A program made the translations under genes and the position numbers. The notes under the pieces are model-generated. The model ran no database searches and was not told where the DNA came from. It was given only the letters and a program-made list of their open reading frames with translations. A stretch of 60,926 nucleotides of DNA from Candidatus Woesearchaeota archaeon (GTDB lineage: Archaea; Nanobdellota; Nanobdellia; UBA10117; JABICX01), in assembly GCA_018692915.1 (NCBI GenBank), contig JABHLG010000004.1, forward strand, positions 1-60,926. The letters are read 5' to 3'. The first letter of the stretch is position 1, and every line of letters starts with the position of its first letter. This document shows, piece after piece, positions 16,957 to 60,926 of this stretch.

Positions 16957-17042
16957 ATAAATTAAATAGCATATACAATATAGTTTTTATAATATAATAT
17001 ATTATAAATTTCTTAATTTAATTAGTATTAAAGGTGAGATTT

Positions 17043-17600
17043 ATGAATAAAAATGGAAAATATGCGATAGTTTTTGCAGTAGTTGTGGCTTGCGTTTTAT
17101 TAACGAGTATTGCTGTTGCAGGCCCAAAAGGTGGCGGTGGAGGACCAAAGCCAGAATGTAACGATAAGATTGATAACGACGGTGATGGATATACAGATAG
17201 AAAAGATGATGGTTGTAATGGTAAAAAAGACAATGATGAAAGCAACTGTGGAGATGGAACTTGTGAGGGTTCAGAATCCAGTGATAATTGTGTAGCAGAT
17301 TGCGGACCTAGCACATATTGCGGTGATGGAACTTGTGATGCAGATGAAGATTGTAGTTCTTGCTCATCAGATTGCGGAAATTGCAACTCATGTACAGATT
17401 CAGATAATGGTTATAATGTAAATACAAAAGGTACAGTATCTGGATATGACAGTGGAGAAACATATACTTATACAGATTATTGCACTACAAACGCTACTCA
17501 ATTATTAGAATATTATTGTATTGGAGATGTATGGAATAGTATACCATATAATTGTAATAGCAATGATACAACCTCTTGTGTAAATGGAGCTTGCATCTAA
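17043..17600 (+). CDS. secreted cysteine-rich protein (MopE-like DxDxDGDG motif plus CGDGTC repeats)
   Basis: Signal/anchor 'YAIVFAVVVACVLLTSIAVA', Gly run, 'ECNDKIDNDGDGYTDRKDDGC', then 'CGDGTC' twice. The track start 17034 is GTG. ATG 17043 is preceded by aaggtga. Confidence 0.7.
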   Translation: MNKNGKYAIVFAVVVACVLLTSIAVAGPKGGGGGPKPECNDKIDNDGDGYTDRKDDGCNGKKDNDESNCGDGTCEGSESSDNCVADCGPSTYCGDGTCDADEDCSSCSSDCGNCNSCTDSDNGYNVNTKGTVSGYDSGETYTYTDYCTTNATQLLEYYCIGDVWNSIPYNCNSNDTTSCVNGACI

Positions 17601-37376: not shown

Positions 37377-39971
37377 TTATCCGTAAATACTCTTTTCTAA
37401 GTATTTATCATCCACCTTAGCGGTTGAAGGATATTCAATTTCCCAAATTCTAATTGGACCTATAATACTACCTTGGTATATTCCAAGAGGTGTTCCATCA
37501 TCATATACTTTATTAAATCCCGGAATTTTTTCATCATAAAAATATAGTCTTGCTAAGTTACCATCTTTAACTTTTGATGATGCAAATAACATCGCACCAA
37601 TTGGGTTTATATTTTCATTATCAATATAATATGGAAGTAAGACAACGCACGCATCTATTGATGGTTCTTCAACAATTATGTTTTGAATAACACCCTTATT
37701 AACAACACAATTAATGTTCATAGAAAGTTGCTGTCCATTTCCAACTACGAAATATGCTACGGGTGGTTCAAATGACCCATCTTCATAAACCATCATACTT
37801 ATTCCTGCAAGAGCCGTTCCTTGTGGAAGAACGCGATTATCAATAATTAAATCCTGGTCTAATCCCCAATATCCTTGGTAAAGATTTTCAACGCCTCCTC
37901 TAATTTCATTTTGGCCTTGCAGTGCGAACATACCTATTGTGCTTCTTCTGTCAAAATCTTCATCAGAACCAATTGTTGCAAAAGCATGATATTTTCCAAT
38001 TTCTTCATTTGAGATTAATAAATGTGTAACTTCATGAGTTTTAAAATAATCAAATGTTTCTGTGAGATTATTATGTGTCAATCCATAGCGACCCATTCCA
38101 TGGTCCCATGCCATAGCATTTCCACCATCAACAACTGTTGCTCGTTCTCCAATTGTTTGTGTCCAATAACCATAATCCCACCAATGCGCAATTACTGCAT
38201 CCTCCGCAGTATTATCTCTAATCCATGTCATTGAATTTTCCCATTTTCCAGGTAAACCTGAACCAGAATTTGAATTTACATATGTTGCTGTAACAGTATT
38301 TGAGTAAAAGCAAAATGCAGCAAAAATAATTAAAATTATTGCCAGTACTTTTTCAGTCTCGCTGTGTTTGAATAAATCTTTAGCTAAATTAACTGTAAAA
38401 TATGCCGCTACTATTGCAACGGTTGGACCAAATGCAAATATTGTTCTTACTGCTCCACGTGCGATAATTGCAGTAAATAAGAACCAAATGAAAATCAAAA
38501 GTAAACTCCAATCTACATTAAATATTTCAGAAAAAGCATGTTTGTCTCTGTTATAATAATAAATATAAAATCCAAAAAATGCTGCTACGAAAAATCCAAA
38601 CCACCATAGATATGTTGATGTAGAAAATTCAGCAATTTTAGCATATTTTGCGTCTGGTGAAAATCTACCAAATATGAATATGATAAAAAATATTGAATAA
38701 CTTGCAGCAATTGAAAGTCCAACTTTTAATGATTTAAACATTTTAATTACCATATAAATTGAGCCAAAAAATGCTAATAAGAACGTCCAACCAAATCCAG
38801 ACCACCAACCATTACCACCAATAAAATAAGGTTGTTGGTTCTCTGAAACTGTAAATGCAAATCTACTTGTTCCTCCAGGATGTAGAAGTCTGCTTATAAC
38901 AAAAGAAGGGTCGGTTAATCCTAAAGCCCATCCTACAATAAATGCGATTATAGCAATTCCACCGAGAATGATTAATTCTCCAGGAATTTTGTATGGAAGA
39001 GCATCACCAATATTATCAGCTAGATTTTTAAGAGGCTTAATTTTATTTGCTAAAAGAATTACAACTGAAAGAAGTAACGCCAAGTTTTCTAATTCTTTGA
39101 TAAAATTTATATTACCAAGAGCTATTGCGCTTAAAATTACAAATGATGCAAACCAACTTAAATAGCCAATCAATTGATTTTTTGATAATTTAGTTAAAAT
39201 TGTTGAAAGTATTGCTAATCCCACAAGTGAAACAATTAAGAAACGATATCCTCCCGGCCAACTAAAATACATAAATGCAGAAATAATTCCTGCTGAACTT
39301 CCAAATATAATTGATTTAATTGTTTTTTTAGATTGCCACATTAATGCAAATAGCCATAGTGCTGCGAACATGAAAACCATAGCAATTGCTTCGTGGTCTG
39401 CAAATCCTGCGCCGGTTCTGTAAATATAACCAGGAATAACTGCTAAAAATGCAGTTGCAACAAGTGCAACTCTTTCGCCAAAAATTTCTTTTACAAATAA
39501 GAATAAAAATACTAAGCTAATAACTGTAGCAACTACGGGATATATTATATGCCATTCTATTTGTGTTACTGATGGCATAATCAGATTAATTATTTTGTAA
39601 GCATATGCTAAAACATAACTAACAAATCTATAGTCCATTCTTAAATTATAACCTAGTGGAACATAACGCATCATATCATGTGTTACCATAGTTCCAGTTT
39701 GAACTATTTCTTGAGAATATCTAAAGAACGCATAGGGGTCTAATCCTAATAAATATTTACTTTGTAAGTGAGAGAGGTTTCTTGTTCGCACAAAATAAGC
39801 AAGTGCTAAAATTGGAAGAAGTAAAATCCAATAAATATTATTAGTTTTTAGGAATTTAATAACTTTTTCTCTGTCTATAGATATTGTTTCATCAGATTTA
39901 TCTTCACTTTTAATAAGACCTTTAAATTTACTCACTATTTGTTTCCTTTTATCAGAAATATCATCCATCAA
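37377..39971 (-). CDS. aglB: archaeal oligosaccharyltransferase AglB (STT3)
   Basis: 864 aa. 13-helix N-terminal region and the catalytic 'WWDYGYW' motif. Confidence 0.92.
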   Translation of the reverse strand: MMDDISDKRKQIVSKFKGLIKSEDKSDETISIDREKVIKFLKTNNIYWILLLPILALAYFVRTRNLSHLQSKYLLGLDPYAFFRYSQEIVQTGTMVTHDMMRYVPLGYNLRMDYRFVSYVLAYAYKIINLIMPSVTQIEWHIIYPVVATVISLVFLFLFVKEIFGERVALVATAFLAVIPGYIYRTGAGFADHEAIAMVFMFAALWLFALMWQSKKTIKSIIFGSSAGIISAFMYFSWPGGYRFLIVSLVGLAILSTILTKLSKNQLIGYLSWFASFVILSAIALGNINFIKELENLALLLSVVILLANKIKPLKNLADNIGDALPYKIPGELIILGGIAIIAFIVGWALGLTDPSFVISRLLHPGGTSRFAFTVSENQQPYFIGGNGWWSGFGWTFLLAFFGSIYMVIKMFKSLKVGLSIAASYSIFFIIFIFGRFSPDAKYAKIAEFSTSTYLWWFGFFVAAFFGFYIYYYNRDKHAFSEIFNVDWSLLLIFIWFLFTAIIARGAVRTIFAFGPTVAIVAAYFTVNLAKDLFKHSETEKVLAIILIIFAAFCFYSNTVTATYVNSNSGSGLPGKWENSMTWIRDNTAEDAVIAHWWDYGYWTQTIGERATVVDGGNAMAWDHGMGRYGLTHNNLTETFDYFKTHEVTHLLISNEEIGKYHAFATIGSDEDFDRRSTIGMFALQGQNEIRGGVENLYQGYWGLDQDLIIDNRVLPQGTALAGISMMVYEDGSFEPPVAYFVVGNGQQLSMNINCVVNKGVIQNIIVEEPSIDACVVLLPYYIDNENINPIGAMLFASSKVKDGNLARLYFYDEKIPGFNKVYDDGTPLGIYQGSIIGPIRIWEIEYPSTAKVDDKYLEKSIYG

Positions 39972-49329: not shown

Positions 49330-49818
49330 ATGCACAAAATAAGACGAGCTGAACCAAAAGACGCAAAACAAGTAAGACAGATGAGTATTGATTTAGAGGA
49401 AGCTATGTTTGATTTGCACAAGAAAAATAAACAAACTATATTTGCGCAGAAACCCGTTATTGCTTCGAAGCATTCAGTTAAAGATCATGCTGAATGGTTC
49501 GCAGGTATGGATGGCAAAAAAGATATTGATTTGACGCATATGTGGTATGTATTAGAAGTTGATGGAAATGTTGTTGGTTATATCAATGGACAGCTCGAGA
49601 AAGAAAATGTAGGTCATTTAGATTCATTATATATTCTTAAGTCATATCGTGGCAAAGGTTATGCAACTGCAATGGTCAAGAAAATTAAAAAATGGTTCAA
49701 ACTAAAAAAAGTAAAGTTTATTGATATATCTGTAGATGCTCCAAATAAACCTGCTCAGAAGTTGTACGAAAAATTAGGTTTTGTTAAAAAGACACACATT
49801 TATGGTTTGAAAGTTTAA
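49330..49818 (+). CDS. GNAT family N-acetyltransferase
   Basis: 'LYILKSYRGKGYATAMVKK' acetyl-CoA binding motif (Q/RxxGxG/A). Confidence 0.75.
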   Translation: MHKIRRAEPKDAKQVRQMSIDLEEAMFDLHKKNKQTIFAQKPVIASKHSVKDHAEWFAGMDGKKDIDLTHMWYVLEVDGNVVGYINGQLEKENVGHLDSLYILKSYRGKGYATAMVKKIKKWFKLKKVKFIDISVDAPNKPAQKLYEKLGFVKKTHIYGLKV

Positions 49819-50429
49819 GAGATATCTACATTTATTACTTGGATGTAGCTGGTGTTAATACAATCATTTGTTGTATTAGTATGTGAATAAGTTAGAAGAA
49901 CTTTATGTGAGCCTTTTCCTGCTGCAGCATTTCCACTAGGTTTAAACTGAACAGAATAGCATTTGTTTGTTAAAGTATCATTTAGCATAATGTAATTAAC
50001 TGAAATATCTCTACCTTTTTTCATCACACAGCTACTTCTTTCTTCCCCAAGCGTTCCAAGAATCGTGTAATTAAAACAAGAACCATTTATACTAGCATTA
50101 CCAAGAATTGCAGTTCCCTTACTTAGAAATGCATCAGGTGGATTCCTTTCAAAAGTAAAAGTTATTGTATGATTATTGTCAATAAAAAGATAACCTTCAT
50201 CAATATCAAAATTAACACTTCGCTGTGATTGTTCGTTTGCAACTTCTCTTATAGCTTTGTCTAATTCAATCATTCTATTTTCAATGCGAGAAATTTCATT
50301 AACTTGATTTGAATCATCTAGAAATTCTTTAGCCCAAAAGAAAGTTCCACTTACAACAACAATTATAATTAGTGTTATAATTAAAAATCCAGTTATATTT
50401 GATTGAGCTTTTTTATTTATCATTGACAT
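49815..50429 (-). CDS. type IV pilin-like protein (class III signal peptide), minor-pilin candidate
   Basis: 'MSMINKKAQSNITGFLIITLIIIVVVSGTFFW' has a basic leader plus a hydrophobic helix. 10-nt overlap with the upstream pilin gene. Confidence 0.6.
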   Translation of the reverse strand: MSMINKKAQSNITGFLIITLIIIVVVSGTFFWAKEFLDDSNQVNEISRIENRMIELDKAIREVANEQSQRSVNFDIDEGYLFIDNNHTITFTFERNPPDAFLSKGTAILGNASINGSCFNYTILGTLGEERSSCVMKKGRDISVNYIMLNDTLTNKCYSVQFKPSGNAAAGKGSHKVLLTYSHTNTTNDCINTSYIQVINVDIS

Positions 50430-52120
50430 TCACATGTGCCTGTATCTAAATCTGAAGTGCATGTTCCAGAGTCACAAGTTCCTATTGAACAAGACCAATC
50501 TGGCGGAACACCACCACAAGTTTCAGCAGCCATACATTCACATTCATGACCATATGTTATTGCACAATCACCTCCACTTGAGCACGCACCATTGCAAAAT
50601 GGATAAGTATATTCACATAAACTATTTTCATTTGAAGTTTCAACAAGACCTTTATCAAATCTACCTGAAACAGATGCTTCGCTACCAAAATTTATTCTAA
50701 AACTATATTCACTTCCAGTTCCATATTTAGCTAAATCACAATTAGTATCTGAAAGTTGTAATTCAATTAATCGTGTCTCACCTGCAACCATATCTGTGCC
50801 ACAACCTTGAATACATTCAACACGATTATTTGAACAATAAGAATAATTAATAATACTACTAAATCCCTTACCCTCTGCTTCATAAGCTTGTTGCCAAGAT
50901 GTGCCATCTATTGAACTAAGTATAACTCCACCATTTTCACTATATACTGTAGCAAATAATTTATTATTAAATACAGCAAATCCAGATACAGAATCGTTGT
51001 TGTTTGTAGATTTTTTACCCCAACCACCTACCCAACCACCTAAGTTTGGGTCATATCTCCATATTGATGCGCCACCTGTTTTATTTGTTCCAGCAAAAAA
51101 CGTATCATTAACAAATAATCCAAAACTAATAACTGCATCATCTCCAGTACTTAATATTCTTGAGCCAAAATTTTCACCATCTGCTGTAGCCCATATTTCT
51201 CCACCATTAAAACCTACATATAATTTATCATTATATACTTTAATAGCAGTTATATTTCCAAAATAATTACTTGAAACTGTCCAATTATCACCATCATCTG
51301 TTCTAATTAATCTACCTCCATTCATTGTGCTAACATATAATTGATTATTAAATATTTCCATATCTGTAATATCATCTTGTTCTGAATCATAAACTTCTGT
51401 CCATGTTTGATTTGATTCTCTTCTAAATACCTTACCATCTCCTTCACCTGCATCAGATGTAGTAGATGCATATAAATTACTCTTGAATTCAATTAAATCA
51501 GTTATTTTTCTTGCATTGGGTATGTCATTATCTAAACTCCAACTGTTAAAATTACAACTTTTAAATATACCTGCTCCAACTGAACTTATATCTATTAATA
51601 CACTAGTTCCTCCAAAATAAATACTATCATTATATTCTGCACTAGCAGATATTTCAGATGCTCCAACCTTACTATCTCTTGCTGTCCAAGATACGCCATC
51701 TATTGAATGAATGATGCTAGAATTTCCATCTGAATTTTGTATTGTTGCAAATATACCACTTTCTTCTGTAATACATGTTCCTTTAAATGTACTTAAACAA
51801 ACTACGTTATCGTTTGAATCAGAAATCATAATTTCTGTGCTATTAGCAATCTTTACTTTTTTCGCTCCCGAGTTTTGTATTAACATTTTTATAGATGTTG
51901 GGATGCATTGTAAATCATCTGCGAGTGTATTATAAATAGGTTCATCTACAATTTTAACTTCAGTTATAATACTGGAAAGTGTTTGCTCATGATATTGTGT
52001 TCCAATTTCTTGTGATTCGGTTTGTATTCGTGCAAACCATAAATACATAGCACTAGCAATTGCAAATGTAATTAATATTATAATAAGTATATTAATTATT
52101 CCTGTCATACCTTTCTTCAT
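50420..52120 (-). CDS. pilin-like protein with an inserted six-bladed beta-propeller-like domain and a Cys-rich C-terminal tail (tip-adhesin candidate)
   Basis: Class III leader 'MKKGMTGIINILIIILITFAI'. Pilin-core blocks 'SDSNDNVVCLS' and 'CIQGC..CDLAKY..YSFRINF..SGRFDK' align to the 203-aa pilin. Six 'N[DN]x[LI][YF]' blades lie between them. Confidence 0.7.
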   Translation of the reverse strand: MKKGMTGIINILIIILITFAIASAMYLWFARIQTESQEIGTQYHEQTLSSIITEVKIVDEPIYNTLADDLQCIPTSIKMLIQNSGAKKVKIANSTEIMISDSNDNVVCLSTFKGTCITEESGIFATIQNSDGNSSIIHSIDGVSWTARDSKVGASEISASAEYNDSIYFGGTSVLIDISSVGAGIFKSCNFNSWSLDNDIPNARKITDLIEFKSNLYASTTSDAGEGDGKVFRRESNQTWTEVYDSEQDDITDMEIFNNQLYVSTMNGGRLIRTDDGDNWTVSSNYFGNITAIKVYNDKLYVGFNGGEIWATADGENFGSRILSTGDDAVISFGLFVNDTFFAGTNKTGGASIWRYDPNLGGWVGGWGKKSTNNNDSVSGFAVFNNKLFATVYSENGGVILSSIDGTSWQQAYEAEGKGFSSIINYSYCSNNRVECIQGCGTDMVAGETRLIELQLSDTNCDLAKYGTGSEYSFRINFGSEASVSGRFDKGLVETSNENSLCEYTYPFCNGACSSGGDCAITYGHECECMAAETCGGVPPDWSCSIGTCDSGTCTSDLDTGTCECQ

Positions 52121-52172
52121 AGTATATTAATTGTATACTTACTTATATAATTTATTAGAAATAACAATAAAA

Positions 52173-52784
52173 TTATTTTACGAACTTGCCGCCCGTTCCA
52201 GTTATACCACTGAAGTCAATTGTAAATGAAAATATCGTATTATTATTATATTCAGCAAGGTCATCACAAGGGTCCCCAAGATTAAGTGTAACTTTTTGTA
52301 TCTCACCAATTTCTAAATAATTATTACAACCACTTATACAATCAGCAGGAGAATCTTCCCAATCACTATTACATACAACATCATTATCGGAGTCATATAA
52401 TATCCATGTTGTTGTCGGAGCATCATTGGAACTCGATATTGGAATATTTGAGTTACCATGATTAATTAAATAAATATCAAGGTCTCCACCAACATATTTT
52501 GCAGTCATAACATCAACGTTGGAACTTATTTTTTCAGATAATTCTTGTTGATATGCTTCAGTTCCACCTTGTGCTTCAGATTGAATTCTAACAAACCAGA
52601 AAAATGCAGCTCCGGCAGCAGCAACAGTCATCATAAGTAATAGAACTACAGCTATAACTGGTGTGATACCTTTTTTACTCATTCTAGAGTGCCGATAAGG
52701 TACACTTTTTGCCAACTTTTTGTGCGAAGCAGAAAAAGCTGCTGGAGTGATACCTTTTTTATTACGTCTAATCTTAGCGTGCAT
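52173..52784 (-). CDS. archaeal type IV pilin (PF07790-type N-terminus) with a 34-aa duplicated leader
   Basis: 'KKGITPVIAVVLLLMMTVAAAGAAFFWF' is preceded by 'MHAKIRRNKKGITPAAFSASHKKLAKSVPYRHSR'. An internal Met (MSKKGITPV) is an alternative start at 52682. Confidence 0.8.
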   Translation of the reverse strand: MHAKIRRNKKGITPAAFSASHKKLAKSVPYRHSRMSKKGITPVIAVVLLLMMTVAAAGAAFFWFVRIQSEAQGGTEAYQQELSEKISSNVDVMTAKYVGGDLDIYLINHGNSNIPISSSNDAPTTTWILYDSDNDVVCNSDWEDSPADCISGCNNYLEIGEIQKVTLNLGDPCDDLAEYNNNTIFSFTIDFSGITGTGGKFVK

Positions 52785-52808
52785 AATCTAATTTATATCT
52801 TTTAGAAT

Positions 52809-52820
52809 ATATATAGTTTT
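52809..52820 (-). promoter_or_regulatory. BRE/TATA-like promoter 12-mer (aaaactatatat on the coding strand)
   Basis: Identical 12-mer 25-36 nt upstream of the ATG at 52784. The same 12-mer occurs at 53963-53974 and 57321-57332. Confidence 0.5.
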
Positions 52821-52888
52821 TGAACTATTGTGAAAAAACTGTATGCTAGCAAAACATTTGTTTTGATTTGTATAAAATTATGGTCTAG

Positions 52889-53512
52889 TTATGTTTCAAA
52901 AGTCCCTGATGTTGTTGCTTCACCACTAAAGAATACTGTTGCACGCATTAATGTATCATCTGAGTAACCAGAAATATCACACTTTGTATCTGATAAATTT
53001 AAGTAAATCGCAGTGCTAGCAGAAGACTGAAGATTTGTAGATGGACCGCAACCAGAATAACAATCAACACTTGTAACTGAAAGAACTGTTGTTCCATCAA
53101 ACTTTGATTCACAAACAGTTATTTGCTCACTATCTTTGAGAATCCACGTTGTTGTCGGGTCTGTTGTAGAATTATCTAATGGAATATCTGTTGTACCAAC
53201 GTTTTGTAAGTAAACGGTTATTGTTTCTGATGTTGCATTATAATCTGCATCAAGCCAGTTTACGCTAGATGCTAATCTATCAAATACATTTTCTTGATAT
53301 TGTTCTGTTCCGCCCTGCATCTGGCTTTGAATTTTAATTAACCAGTAGAAGCTTGCGCCTGCAGCAGCAACAGTCATCATTAATAATAAAATAATTGCTA
53401 TAATTGGAGTAATTCCTTTTTTGTTTTTAGGGTAGCGCTGATAAGGTGCTCTTTTTGCCAACTTTTTGCGCGAAGTGGAAAAAGCTGTTGGTGTGATACC
53501 TTTTTTATTCAT
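52889..53512 (-). CDS. archaeal type IV pilin with a 30-aa duplicated leader
   Basis: 'MNKKGITPTAFSTSRKKLAKRAPYQRYPKN' is followed by 'KKGITPIIAIILLLMMTVAAAGASFYW'. There is no internal Met before the second KKGITP. Confidence 0.8.
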   Translation of the reverse strand: MNKKGITPTAFSTSRKKLAKRAPYQRYPKNKKGITPIIAIILLLMMTVAAAGASFYWLIKIQSQMQGGTEQYQENVFDRLASSVNWLDADYNATSETITVYLQNVGTTDIPLDNSTTDPTTTWILKDSEQITVCESKFDGTTVLSVTSVDCYSGCGPSTNLQSSASTAIYLNLSDTKCDISGYSDDTLMRATVFFSGEATTSGTFET

Positions 53513-53940
53513 TATTTTTTTCTCCTATATTTTACTGGAATACCGCTAGGCAACCGTCTAAATGCAGTAAATGTTTCGTTTGAATTTAAACTCTTAAATG
53601 CACGAGTTAAGTGGTCATGTTTGTCATGTAAACCATCAATTTTAGAATGTAATTTTTTAAATTCATGACCAGAGTCATCTTCTAATTCAATTTCTCTAAT
53701 TACATTAATGAATTTTTGCAAATGTGTTTTGATTTCCTCAAGTTTGTAATTTTGTTCAATAATTTTTTGTTGTGTCTGTAAGTTTGAATTTAGTAATTTA
53801 ACTAAAAGTCTTTCAGCATTATTTTCTTTTTCCATACCCTTGCGTAAACTTCTTACTTCTCTTTTCAAGTCATGCAAAGGCTGAATCGGAATAAGTTCGT
53901 ATTCATCAATACTACTAGAGCTACTTTTCTTCCTACTCAT
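53512..53940 (-). CDS. coiled-coil protein, first gene of the pilin operon
   Basis: 142 aa. Ser-rich N-terminus, long heptad-like helices and a basic C-terminus. Its stop abuts or overlaps the pilin ATG. Confidence 0.55.
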   Translation of the reverse strand: MSRKKSSSSSIDEYELIPIQPLHDLKREVRSLRKGMEKENNAERLLVKLLNSNLQTQQKIIEQNYKLEEIKTHLQKFINVIREIELEDDSGHEFKKLHSKIDGLHDKHDHLTRAFKSLNSNETFTAFRRLPSGIPVKYRRKK

Positions 53941-56753: not shown

Positions 56754-57299
56754 TTAACTATTAGCAGGATCTTTAATAAACTGACTTCCAGTTCCTGTTA
56801 CACCTGCGAAGTCCATCTTAAAATAAAATACAGAGTTATTTGTATATGTTCCTAAATAACAATTGTGTGATGTGTTACTTATGTTTAATATAATTGTACG
56901 AGTGCTTCTAACATCAATATTAGAATCACAACCACTTTGGCAATAAGTATTTTCATTATTACCTGTTCCCGATGCATTAAATGGTTGGTTACAAACAATA
57001 TTTTGTTTATTATCTTTTAATATCCACGTTACTGTTGATGTATCTGTTAACGGCACCTCTGTATTGCCTATGTTTCTAATTATTATTTTAAGAGATTCAT
57101 CATACATAACATCAACTTCAGATACATCCGCCTTTGCAGCAATTTTTTCAGATAGTTGTTCAGAATAAGATTCTGTACCGCCTTGCATTTCAGATTGAAT
57201 TCTAACAAACCAGAAAAATGCAGCTCCGGCAGCAGCAACAGTCATCATAAGTAATAGAACTACAGCTATAACTGGTGTAAGACCTTTCTTATTATTCAT
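56754..57299 (-). CDS. archaeal type IV pilin (no extended leader)
   Basis: 'MNNKKGLTPVIAVVLLLMMTVAAAGAAFFWFVRIQSE'. 90 nt of the N-terminal helix coding sequence are identical to 52575-52664. Confidence 0.85.
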   Translation of the reverse strand: MNNKKGLTPVIAVVLLLMMTVAAAGAAFFWFVRIQSEMQGGTESYSEQLSEKIAAKADVSEVDVMYDESLKIIIRNIGNTEVPLTDTSTVTWILKDNKQNIVCNQPFNASGTGNNENTYCQSGCDSNIDVRSTRTIILNISNTSHNCYLGTYTNNSVFYFKMDFAGVTGTGSQFIKDPANS

Positions 57300-58063: not shown

Positions 58064-58270
58064 ATGAGTAATCATCTTAAGATATCTCAAATTGATAATC
58101 GTGGTCAAATTGTAATACCTAAAGAAATAAGAGAAAAACTAAAAATCTCTCCCGGAACAGGATTTTATATTTATAATATATCTAGTGACGGTATTCTTCT
58201 AAAGAAAATACCTAATATTTTACCTGATATTGAGCTAGCAAAAAAAGAACTTCGGAGGTTTAAGAAATGA
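58064..58270 (+). CDS. AbrB/SpoVT/MazE-type DNA-binding protein
   Basis: 'ISQIDNRGQIVIPKEIREKLKISPGTGFYIY' matches the swapped-hairpin AbrB domain signature. 68 aa. Confidence 0.75.
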   Translation: MSNHLKISQIDNRGQIVIPKEIREKLKISPGTGFYIYNISSDGILLKKIPNILPDIELAKKELRRFKK

Positions 58271-60926
58271 AATATCTTAAGTTTGCATTGATTCTTATAC
58301 TTGTTTTAGGTATGGGTCAAGCTTGGGCCATCGATAATCACATAATTTTTGAAACAACTAATGAATATGATGGTAATTTAGGTGGAAAAAGTGGTGCGGA
58401 TGGAATCTGTATGACTGAAGCAGAGAGTTTGGGATTAAATGGAGAATTTATCTCATATTTAGATTATACTACTGAAAAAGCATTAGATTATCTTAATCTT
58501 GACATGATTTATGAAACACCTGCTGGTGAAATAAATTTTAGAGAAGATAGTATAGACGCACCATTTAGGGCATTTAATGGAGAATATTGGTATGGTGAGG
58601 GTTGTAATGATTTTTCTACAAATGCTGTAGATGTTGATGGTAGATATTATATTAATGATGGAACAAGTTTAGTATCAAATACGGATGATTGTAGTAATAC
58701 ACACAAATTACTTTGTGCAACGCTTAAAGCATGTGGTAATGGTTTAATTGAAGATGGTGAAGTTTGCGATGATGATGATATTATAACTGAAACTGCTTGT
58801 GATTATGGAACTCAAGAATGTACTCTTTGTAATGCAGATTGCACAGCAGAGTTAAGCTTAATTGGGTCATATTGTGGAGATGGAACTATTGATACAGGAG
58901 AAGTTTGTGATGATGGCAATAATGTCGATGAAACTGCTTGTGAATATGGTAATATAAGTTGCACATCTTGTAATTCAGATTGTTCAGCAAATCTTACATT
59001 AAATGGATTATATTGTGGTGATAAAATTTTGAATTTAACTTTGGGAGAAGAATGCGATGATGGTAATAATCTCACAAAAGATGGATGTAATGCAATGTGT
59101 CAGAATGAAACAACATTTATGCTTCGAGTTCATTTATTTGATTATGCTAAGAATTTAGTTACTTCAATTAAGAATATCGGATATACAATGGTAGAAATTA
59201 CTGTTGATAATTTAGATTCAGCAGAAACAACTGTTAATGCTTATATTTATACAGGCAAGGCAGTTCCTGCCGGAATTGTAGGTCATAATATTTATTGTGA
59301 TATGCAGGGAGTATTATGTTGTATTTCTTCTACAGGTTACTGTAAAGATTATTATGTGCCTGAAACTGGAGGAGCATTTACTGGAAGCCCTTGTGTATGT
59401 AATAGTACTGCAGGGTTTAATGAGAAAATGCCTTGGATGAGCGTCTATCCAGAATCTTTTGAAACAATATCTTTAGAAAAATCTGGAGCAAAATATACAT
59501 CTCTTCTAGATGAAAAAGAATATAGATACTCTGATTGTAAGCGTAAAGGCGAACATTCTGTTTGCTATATTAAAGCTTATTTTGAAGATCCAGAAGGTAA
59601 TATCTTTGACGAACTTTATACTTTAGAAATAGAGCGAGATTCATCAAGCAAGCCGATTATAAACTACACTATTGCAGGTGACCCTGAAGCTAATAAAGAT
59701 GTATATTATATTGATGTGGAAACATTTGAAACTGCTAGTGAAGATCCTTATCCCGTAGTATTTGATGCATCATTAAGTCAATTTAAATCACCTACATGTT
59801 ATGGTGGAGAAGAATGTTACTTCTTAGATAGTAATTTCTTAGAATACAAATGGTATATTGAAATACATAATAAACCATGGGGAAAAGTAGAGAATTTCCT
59901 TTGCACAAATGGAACAGATTCTTGTGTAAATCCTGTATGTGAGACTCAATGTGCAGATAAATTACCATGTACTTGCTTACAATTTGATACAGATGGTGAA
60001 GTTTATGATGGATATGTTGATAATCGCAAGACTTTCTCATATGACTTTGCTAATTCAAATGTTTGTGGTCCAGAAAAAAGCTGTGCAGTAACTCTTACAG
60101 TTACAGATAAAACAACTCTTGCTTCAAGCACAAAGCAATTTGGTATAATTCTTTCAGGAACTGCAACAGGAGATAGTCCATATGGAAATTACAGTCAGCT
60201 ATGCAGTGTTGGTGGAGAACAAATTGGATATACAGGTTATTGTTGTAGAACAGGATATATGGTAAATCCTAAGTTTAATAATTTTAATGAATTGTTCAAA
60301 AACAGAATGGATGCTTGTGTTGAAGTTCCGAATAAAGCACCAATTGCTAGAATTTCTTTTCCTGAAGATGATGAGATTTACAAAGCAGGAAATAATAAAG
60401 ATATTTACTTTAGAGCAGAAGGTTCTGATTCAGATGGTAACATAACTGCTTATTTATGGGATTTTGATGATAGAACCGAGCCATGGGGTTATCTTGAAAC
60501 TAATGAATATGATGAAATTGTTTGCGAAGCTGTAAAAGGAAGCAAATCTTGTGGTGAAGAAGAAGCGGTTTCTCTAGATGATTATGATGAAGAAGAGCAA
60601 ATTCCATGTTCTTGTAATCTAAAATATAGTGAGGATATTCTTAATATATATCCAGAATCTGCATCAACAAAGCAAAAGACTGTTCATACATATGAAAATA
60701 AATATGCTTGTTCTGAATATGATGAAGAAAAAGAATCAGAGTGTGAGATTACTTTATGGGTATTTGATGAAGAAGATACTGCTGGAAAAACAAAAATAAC
60801 TATAGAACTTACTGATGAATCTTCTGGTGATGGAATTGATGGTGATTTAGATATTGATTTCTACTGTGGTGATGGATTAGTTACTGGAACTGAAGAGTGT
60901 GATATTGGTGAAGTAAGTGCTTGTGA
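58267..60926 (+). CDS. large secreted cysteine-repeat/PKD-like surface protein, 5' part (over 886 aa, continues beyond the window)
   Basis: ATG 58267 overlaps the AbrB stop (ATGA). Frame 1 was read open to the window end. Signal peptide MKYLKFALILILVLGMGQAWA. 'CGDGTIDTGEVCDDGNN' type repeats occur at least 4 times. 'GSDSDGNITAYLWDFDD' is PKD-like. The ORF is absent from the track because it has no stop in the window. Confidence 0.85.
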   Translation, partial: MKYLKFALILILVLGMGQAWAIDNHIIFETTNEYDGNLGGKSGADGICMTEAESLGLNGEFISYLDYTTEKALDYLNLDMIYETPAGEINFREDSIDAPFRAFNGEYWYGEGCNDFSTNAVDVDGRYYINDGTSLVSNTDDCSNTHKLLCATLKACGNGLIEDGEVCDDDDIITETACDYGTQECTLCNADCTAELSLIGSYCGDGTIDTGEVCDDGNNVDETACEYGNISCTSCNSDCSANLTLNGLYCGDKILNLTLGEECDDGNNLTKDGCNAMCQNETTFMLRVHLFDYAKNLVTSIKNIGYTMVEITVDNLDSAETTVNAYIYTGKAVPAGIVGHNIYCDMQGVLCCISSTGYCKDYYVPETGGAFTGSPCVCNSTAGFNEKMPWMSVYPESFETISLEKSGAKYTSLLDEKEYRYSDCKRKGEHSVCYIKAYFEDPEGNIFDELYTLEIERDSSSKPIINYTIAGDPEANKDVYYIDVETFETASEDPYPVVFDASLSQFKSPTCYGGEECYFLDSNFLEYKWYIEIHNKPWGKVENFLCTNGTDSCVNPVCETQCADKLPCTCLQFDTDGEVYDGYVDNRKTFSYDFANSNVCGPEKSCAVTLTVTDKTTLASSTKQFGIILSGTATGDSPYGNYSQLCSVGGEQIGYTGYCCRTGYMVNPKFNNFNELFKNRMDACVEVPNKAPIARISFPEDDEIYKAGNNKDIYFRAEGSDSDGNITAYLWDFDDRTEPWGYLETNEYDEIVCEAVKGSKSCGEEEAVSLDDYDEEEQIPCSCNLKYSEDILNIYPESASTKQKTVHTYENKYACSEYDEEKESECEITLWVFDEEDTAGKTKITIELTDESSGDGIDGDLDIDFYCGDGLVTGTEECDIGEVSAC

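Follow-up and report, generated by a model that had tools for sequence, protein, structure and literature searches.

A seven-bladed β-propeller inserted into a loop of a pilin-like protein: a candidate modular minor pilin of a Woesearchaeota-like DPANN archaeon

Introduction

DPANN archaea are mostly uncultured, and the ways in which they attach to hosts and surfaces are largely unknown. In a 60,926-nucleotide (nt) stretch of Candidatus Woesearchaeota DNA (contig JABHLG010000004.1 of assembly GCA_018692915.1; the whole stretch is hereafter referred to as the window), a gene on the minus strand (50420..52120, stop codon 50420-50422) encodes a protein of 566 amino acids (aa) that resembles the small pilins encoded directly upstream on both sides of a long additional segment. 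This raised the questions of whether the 566-aa protein is a pilin carrying a domain in one of its loops, what this domain is, and what such a protein would do for the cell. An earlier reading of the window (the original prediction) had described it as a pilin with a propeller grafted into a loop, the design expected of a tip or lateral adhesin. Herein, we examined the protein, its relatives, and its gene neighborhood, and the locus is put forward as a concrete candidate for attachment, with a link to a pilus motor in relatives.

Results

A pilin fold interrupted at one loop

When the 566-aa protein was compared by BLASTP with the adjacent 203-aa open reading frame (ORF), residues 2-108 were aligned with residues 37-138 (E = 4e-7) and residues 435-490 with residues 148-203 (E = 3e-8), leaving a gap of ~320 residues between the two blocks. 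The 207-aa pilin encoded further upstream gave the same two-sided match (E = 2e-12 on the N side and 3e-8 on the C side). Likewise, in a hidden Markov model (HMM) built exclusively from small pilins (119 sequences), positions 5-131 matched residues 2-131 (62.5 bits) and positions 105-171 matched residues 422-489 (36.9 bits, E = 2e-7 at Z = 1e6), and all of 20 shuffled copies of the protein scored below 5 bits. The two-sided alignment to a small pilin claimed in the original prediction was thus confirmed, and the coordinates proposed for the insert, 50816-51772, were found to correspond exactly to residues 117-435.

The interrupted fold was modeled on the small pilin by using AlphaFold2 (AF2) with an alignment of 126 sequences, which yielded a helix (residues 6-53) followed by ten strands at a predicted local distance difference test (pLDDT) value of 83.5. 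In Foldseek searches, the best matches of this model were the type IV pilus of Pyrobaculum calidifontis (8fk7, E = 3e-7), FlaF of S. acidocaldarius (4p94, E about 1e-5), the archaellin of H. salinarum (9eq7, E about 1e-5 to 1e-4), and the pilus of S. solfataricus (6w8x, E about 1e-3). A MAFFT alignment (126 sequences) further revealed that the extra residues of the 566-aa protein form a single contiguous block of ~325 aa between the first two Cys residues of a four-Cys frame, which reads C-x9-19-C-x3-C-x~20-C in the small pilins and comprises C108, C436, C440, and C461 in the 566-aa protein. As Cys1 lies in β5 and Cys2 in β6 of the small-pilin model, the block is inserted into the β5-β6 hairpin loop. 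This Cys1-Cys2 loop (9-19 residues) is one of the most variable segments of the small pilins, as would be expected of an exposed loop.

Based on the BLASTP and HMM matches, the strand order, and the Cys positions, the 566-aa protein was divided as follows, all on the minus strand. Residues 1-50 (51971..52120) comprise a class III-type signal peptide (MKKG/MTG..., with the putative cleavage after G) and a long hydrophobic N-terminal helix (residues 3-48 in the AF2 model), aligned with KKG/ITPVIAVV... of the small pilins. Residues 51-116 (51773..51970) form the N-terminal half of the β-sandwich (β1-β5), which carries C72, C108 (frame Cys1), and C116 at the entry of the insert, and residues 436-490 (50651..50815) form the C-terminal half (β6-β10) with frame Cys2-4. 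Taken together, these sequence comparisons supported the view that the 566-aa protein represents a folded domain grafted into the Cys-bounded loop of a pilin fold.

The inserted propeller

The AF2 model of the full 566-aa protein was based on an alignment of only seven family sequences and displayed confident geometry for the insert only, in which residues ~116-431 were predicted as an all-β repeat structure with block pLDDT values of 75-94. The insert (residues 117-435, 50816..51772, minus strand) contains seven units with the blade consensus I....F-N.-LYAG-..GG.I..S.DG..WT, spanning residues 117-153, 154-202, 203-248, 249-287, 288-326, 327-373, and 374-417, and seven DGxxW-type loops are located at residues 141, 190, 236, 276, 314, 357-363, and 405. 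Blade 1 is devoid of its first strand, and the C-terminal strand 418-429 appears to supply the missing one in a "velcro" closure. Two further Cys residues are found here, C189 in blade 2 and C429 at the exit of the insert.

A Foldseek search with the insert gave more than 1300 propeller matches, including hundreds of solved propellers. The best fits were the seven-bladed 1ri6 and 3fgb (TMq 0.42-0.43, root-mean-square deviation 4.4-5.3), and the six-bladed Kelch domains reached a TMq of 0.34. This better fit of seven-bladed structures, together with the seven sequence repeats, ruled out a six-bladed Kelch-like propeller. Hence, a propeller of ~320 aa in the Cys-bounded loop, as originally proposed, was verified, but not its six blades, for which the first blade (GIFATIQN...SIDGVSW) had been overlooked.

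As for the class of the propeller, a phage protein labeled "BNR repeat-like" fitted best among viral models (TMt 0.71), with DUF6242 proteins of phages also among the matches. Pfam DUF6242 scored 27.8 bits in the 566-aa protein against a gathering threshold of 29, and 33-39 bits in the homologues P0003, P0004, P0011, and P0014; precomputed DUF6242_C matches at the relatives' loci were graded "weak" or "faint". The Pfam search of the 566-aa protein gave no BNR family, and no match to the PilY1/PilC propeller family at E <= 1. Matches to propellers in a PDB sequence search were weak only, and a word-indexed homologue search with the propeller alone returned nothing other than the 566-aa protein itself. 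We refer to the insert as a propeller of the DUF6242/BNR-like class.

In addition, ten N-x-S/T sequons were found within residues 93-427, and a gene for the oligosaccharyltransferase AglB is present in the window at 37377-39971. The displayed domain of the modular pilin may, judging from these sequence features, be N-glycosylated.

Cys residues and the C-terminal tail

Among 13 aligned full-length family members, the four frame Cys residues were invariant. C116 and C429, at the entry and exit of the insert, were both present in 12 of the 13 and both replaced by Thr in the remaining one (P0012); C72 of the pilin body and C189 of blade 2 were both present in 10 of the 13 and both absent in P0015, P0018, and P0025. 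This paired retention and loss suggests that C116-C429 is a disulfide that staples a two-stranded stalk and that C72-C189 is another that ties the propeller to the pilin body.

The C-terminal tail (residues 491-566, 50423..50650, minus strand) contains 12 Cys residues, rather than the 15 reported earlier, arranged in two short repeats of C-x3/4-C-x4/5-C-x7/8-C-x-C. In P0014, P0018, and P0025, the Cys-rich tails are hundreds of residues longer. No Pfam family was found for the tail, and evasins, matched in the PDB at E of 0.05 or worse, were set aside as a reflection of Cys composition.

Relatives and alternative inserts

Full-length homologues of the 566-aa protein were identified at 42-71% identity, and an exhaustive search over 1.84 billion representatives added eight further 50%-identity clusters that possess the full architecture, at ~25-35% identity to the 566-aa protein. 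In the same search, other inserts were found at the same loop of a split pilin scaffold, namely a Cys-rich insert of ~140 aa in P0059, a β-rich insert of ~375-390 aa in P0041 and P0070, and an insert of ~460-485 aa in P0084 and P0107. The search for homologous insertions in other pilins, which had been suggested as a check of the original prediction, was thus positive.

The propeller is also found as a module outside pilus proteins. P0016, a non-pilin cohesin/CARDB surface protein, carries the same propeller with the flanking Cys residues at 37% identity, and this type of propeller recurs in phage proteins as well as in multi-propeller proteins, of which there are hundreds. The longest contig of P0016 and that of a close small-pilin homologue are equal in length (28,355 nt) and may be one and the same. 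Sequence identity falls more steeply in the propeller than in the scaffold, at 60% versus 79-86% in close relatives and 35% versus 51-67% in more distant ones. This difference in sequence conservation would fit a ligand-facing module, and weaker constraint could also explain it.

Apart from the pilin row, two Cys-rich ORFs are encoded on the plus strand of the window. The repeats of a Cys-rich ORF at 17034-17600 match the Cys-rich linkers of P0016 (tblastn E = 2e-7). Another ORF of at least 887 aa at about 58200-60926, which runs off the end of the window, has a signal peptide and Cys-rich repeats and probably encodes a giant surface protein. It is preceded by a 69-aa AbrB/MazE-like ORF, and the same pairing was observed beside the pilin locus in L004 and in the P0005 contig.

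The gene row and its conservation

The window is of low guanine-plus-cytosine content (~30%) and represents a segment of an archaeal chromosome, with genes including those for PolD, Cdc6, Hef, Hel308, a thermosome subunit, SecDF, and AglB; searches for tRNA genes and Rfam families gave no match within it. Several homologues are named Candidatus Woesearchaeota, and the only species-representative genome with a relative of the 566-aa protein is a Candidatus Woesearchaeota metagenome-assembled genome (SI048_bin60), in which the locus is truncated.

According to the ORF list, the gene of the 566-aa protein is the fourth of five in a tight row on the minus strand (49815-53940), with two junctions overlapping (TAATG between genes 1 and 2, and 10 nt between genes 4 and 5). 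The first gene (53512..53940) encodes a 142-aa helical or coiled-coil protein, for which no family match was obtained in the Pfam and curated-model searches; its position is kept in the relatives' loci L001, L002, L004, and L005, and it is 30-38% identical to the L004 and L005 copies. It is followed by the small pilin genes of the 207-aa ORF (52889..53512) and the 203-aa ORF (52173..52784). The last gene (49815..50429) encodes a 204-aa pilin-like protein with a class III-type N-terminus (NKKA/QSNITGFLI..., putatively cut after A), 38-46% identical to the syntenic proteins of L004 and L005, which start with MKRG/QASVVGF (cut after G). It is weakly DUF7289-like (E = 0.018; graded "weak" in a relative).

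For the small pilins, 179 homologues were found. Since these are 168-196 aa in length, the 203-aa ORF was judged to be over-extended, and the neighbor originally taken as a 203-aa pilin is probably a 169-aa protein starting at Met35 (nt 52682). The two small pilins share 46% identity, and the 207-aa ORF is syntenic in relatives. A third small pilin paralogue of 181 aa is encoded on the same strand beyond the thermosome gene (56754..57299); it is 35-48% identical in tblastn to the small pilins of L004 and L005, has a longer Cys1-Cys2 loop of 16 residues, and gave no Pfam match. All three pass TIGR02537, the N-terminal model of archaellins and type IV pilins, whose cutoff is 20 bits (36.1 bits for the 203-aa ORF, 34.9 bits for the 207-aa ORF, and 35.9 bits for the third).

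A peculiarity was observed upstream of the first two small pilins. Their 5' leaders (52683-52784 and 53423-53512, minus strand) share ~75 nt at ~90% identity, in contrast to 46% for the proteins, and this stretch encodes a duplicated pseudo-N-terminus, NKKGITP[A/T]AFS...KKLAK, ahead of the genuine start at KKGITP. Within the stretch lies a 9-bp hairpin (CAGCUUUUU / AAAAAGUUG), and most homologues elsewhere are devoid of the leader stretch. In the 207-aa pilin gene, there is no alternative start codon near the second KKG, and the leader would thus be 32 aa long. The duplication could be a regulatory leader, a product of gene conversion, or an unusually long signal peptide.

The five-gene order between the thermosome and Hel308 genes is kept in relatives at 43-50% identity. 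In L004 (~30% identity), the operon is longer and also encodes additional class III-type proteins, a T2SSE-family ATPase, and, as two separate T2SSF genes, a platform protein; in L005, which has a different insert in the same loop, the same ATPase and split platform are present, and the locus ends at the second platform gene. A split platform has been stated to be a hallmark of the archaeal type IV filament (TFF) "system 1" of methanogens and DPANN archaea (bioRxiv 10.64898/2026.04.22.720090).

Regarding the same interval, L004 (12921-20139) and L005 (10784-14798) harbor ~7 kb between the ~205-aa pilin-like gene and Hel308, with the extra class III-type proteins, the T2SSE ATPase, the two T2SSF genes, and a MopE-like Cys-rich protein. 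Its counterpart in the window (49330-49818) and in the closer relatives is a single acetyltransferase-like gene on the opposite strand, or nothing.

Discussion

In the 566-aa protein, the signal peptide, core helix, and β-sandwich of the small pilins are kept, the β5-β6 loop is opened for a complete propeller, and a Cys-rich tail is added. We consider it reasonably probable that a Woesearchaeota-like DPANN archaeon builds a type IV pilus-like filament in which this protein is a modular minor subunit acting as an adhesin. In the proposed mechanism, a prepilin peptidase would cleave the protein after Gly4, and by way of its N-terminal helix the protein would join a filament whose main components are the two or three small pilins. 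The propeller would be held out rigidly on the two-stranded stalk stapled by C116-C429, would be tied to the pilin body by C72-C189, and, probably along with the tail, would bind a ligand on a surface or host cell. Because it is bulky and single copy, the modular pilin would probably be of low abundance, placed at the tip or sparsely along the shaft.

Several points weigh against this explanation. The N-terminus of the 566-aa protein did not reach the thresholds of TIGR02537 and Pilin_N (PF07790). In its AF2 model, the pilin flanks displayed pLDDT values of 30-60 and the tail values below 60, and although the strand order of the flanks was the same as that in the small-pilin model, the intact sandwich therefore rests on homology and matching strand order; of the structure expected by the original prediction, the propeller was thus modeled with confidence, whereas the sandwich is predicted from homology to the small-pilin model. 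The disulfides are deduced from sequence, on two or three independent loss events. Neither an assembly ATPase nor a platform protein was found in the 61-kb window, and the filament machinery was missing as well from the corresponding loci of L001, L002, and the P0005 contig, all of them close relatives; a prepilin peptidase was seen neither in the window nor at the relatives' loci. Filament assembly in the source organism is thus putative, as are the adhesin role and the position of the subunit at the tip or along the shaft. Moreover, no ligand was identified for the propeller, and to our knowledge DUF6242 has no known function.

The lack of machinery in the window and at the closest relatives' locus would be accounted for if the protein were a membrane-anchored surface adhesin rather than a filament subunit, with the helix acting only as its anchor or contributing to a short stub of the pseudopilus or bindosome-like kind. 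In line with this, the N-terminus of the 566-aa protein has diverged further than the small-pilin N-termini, and class III signal peptides are also carried by non-filament proteins, such as the substrate-binding proteins of bindosomes (bioRxiv 10.64898/2026.04.22.720090). Such an anchor is nonetheless unlikely in our view, given that the operon position of the gene is constant, immediately behind two canonical small pilins and ahead of a further pilin-like gene, that this operon is contiguous with ATPase and split platform genes in more distant relatives, and that the complete pilin sandwich with its four conserved frame Cys residues would be needless for a simple anchor. The same lack, namely that of the ATPase, the platform, and several pilin-like genes that separate the ~205-aa gene from Hel308 in L004 and L005, could also indicate that the pilus machinery has been lost and that the pilin operon is a relic in decay, its insert being devoid of any current function. 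This is hardly credible, however: all five genes are intact with several overlapping at their junctions, their order and sequence are kept at 43-71% identity across lineages likewise without adjacent machinery, and all eight body Cys residues as well as nearly all of the tail Cys residues are retained.

Two further explanations concern the roles of the propeller and the pilin. The propeller might be a catalytic module, of glycoside hydrolase or sialidase-like type, that degrades a polymer from its place on the filament. Its loops read S-x-D-G-x-x-W, which is Asp-box-like and one residue shorter than the canonical S-x-D-x-G-x-T-W; glycoside hydrolase family 74 (GH74) xyloglucanases were weakly matched (6p2m, E = 6e-4; 2cn2, E = 0.013); an NCBIfam glycosylhydrolase model scored 19 bits against a cutoff of 175; and in the DUF6242 relative P0035, the domain is fused to a glycosyl hydrolase core. 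All of these enzyme matches of the propeller, however, lie well under the thresholds and coincide with the repeat motif, with no catalytic family significant in the Pfam and curated-model searches. GH74 enzymes need two propellers to form their cleft, whereas a single one is present here, and the best structural matches, Kelch and lactonase-type propellers, are uninformative on function. We thus regard catalysis as improbable. Still less probable is an archaellum accessory protein of the ArlF/ArlG (FlaF/FlaG) type whose propeller would bind the S-layer as part of the stator. It is prompted by the JGI name of P0007 ("archaellum component FlaG") and the "flagellin-like" names of others, by FlaF as the second-best structural match of the small pilin, and by weak Arch_flagellin and ArlF matches. 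The ArlF and ArlG scores were nevertheless 19-26 bits against cutoffs of 110, ArlH, ArlCDE, and ArlX were not found at the relatives' loci L004 and L005, the ATPase there scored 447 bits against a FlaI cutoff of 550, and the platform is encoded by two genes instead of a single ArlJ.

Returning to the modular minor pilin, the various inserts at one loop suggest that, in the wider family, the β5-β6 hairpin serves as a docking site for different display modules. On a further proposal, which is tentative and to us more doubtful than not, the hairpin is an exchangeable display socket with a disulfide-stapled stalk, its modules are drawn from the pool that the giant surface proteins also use, and the pilus-borne module sets host or surface attachment. 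Candidate modules may be the seven-bladed propeller, the larger β-rich domains, and the Cys-rich domain. If this is true, the module would decide the attachment target of ultrasmall, probably episymbiotic archaea.

Among known systems, the bacterial modular pilins are comparable, such as those of Streptococcus sanguinis, in which PilB carries a von Willebrand factor A (vWA) module and PilC a lectin module, each joined at the C-terminus (PMC8179133, PMC10191384); bulky add-ons of bacterial pilins have been linked to adhesion and tip location (PMC8179133). The 566-aa protein similarly combines a small pilin module with a bulky, presumably binding module that is not specific to pilus biology, its gene lies beside those of major pilins as a minor-pilin gene, the type of module is swapped between lineages, and its Cys-rich tail corresponds to a C-terminal graft. 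In contrast to PilB and PilC, whose modules follow a short C-terminal linker, the propeller lies inside the β-sandwich, between β5 and β6, and the scaffold is an archaeal pilin/archaellin-type fold from a DPANN archaeon. An insertion into the β-sheet of the pilin module is known from GspK and PilK-type minor (pseudo)pilins; GspK carries an α-helical domain there and is located at the filament tip with other minor pilins (PMC8179133). However, its insert is α-helical and of unclear function, GspK is bacterial and belongs to a conserved I-J-K tip complex, and no sequence relationship to the 566-aa protein was detectable in the PDB sequence search. The PilC/PilY1 tip adhesins of type IVa pili also present a β-propeller on the pilus and have modular binding parts (PMC8179133, PMC10191384), but PilY1 is a non-pilin that docks on minor pilins, whereas here the propeller, of the DUF6242/BNR-like class, is part of the pilin chain itself.

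With the solved archaeal pilins, FlaF, and archaellins, the small-pilin model shares the N-terminal helix and the immunoglobulin-like β-sandwich (TM 0.45-0.62, E = 3e-7 to 1e-3). The chains in 8fk7, 6w8x, 4p94, and 9eq7 differ in that they are 13-16% identical and, at 116-183 residues, too small for such an insert; the four-Cys frame is specific to this DPANN pilin family. In bacterial flagellins, the D2/D3 domains and enzyme-bearing insertions likewise split a conserved polymerization scaffold by a variable, outward-facing domain that can be entirely different from lineage to lineage, although fold and assembly are unrelated and the insert there is present in every filament subunit.

In the literature searched, we came across no archaeal pilin with a propeller inserted into a loop, which does not prove that none has been described; surveys covering the type IV systems of archaea mention proteins resembling adhesins or PilY, as well as binding-domain proteins with class III signals, with no propeller in a pilin loop (including bioRxiv 10.64898/2026.04.22.720090). 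The design of loop insertion is thus known from bacterial pilins and, as far as we found, new for archaeal ones. The four-Cys scaffold may serve as a natural display framework, and the concept of the modular pilin would be extended from bacteria to archaea, with the graft made by loop insertion on a stapled stalk instead of C-terminal fusion.

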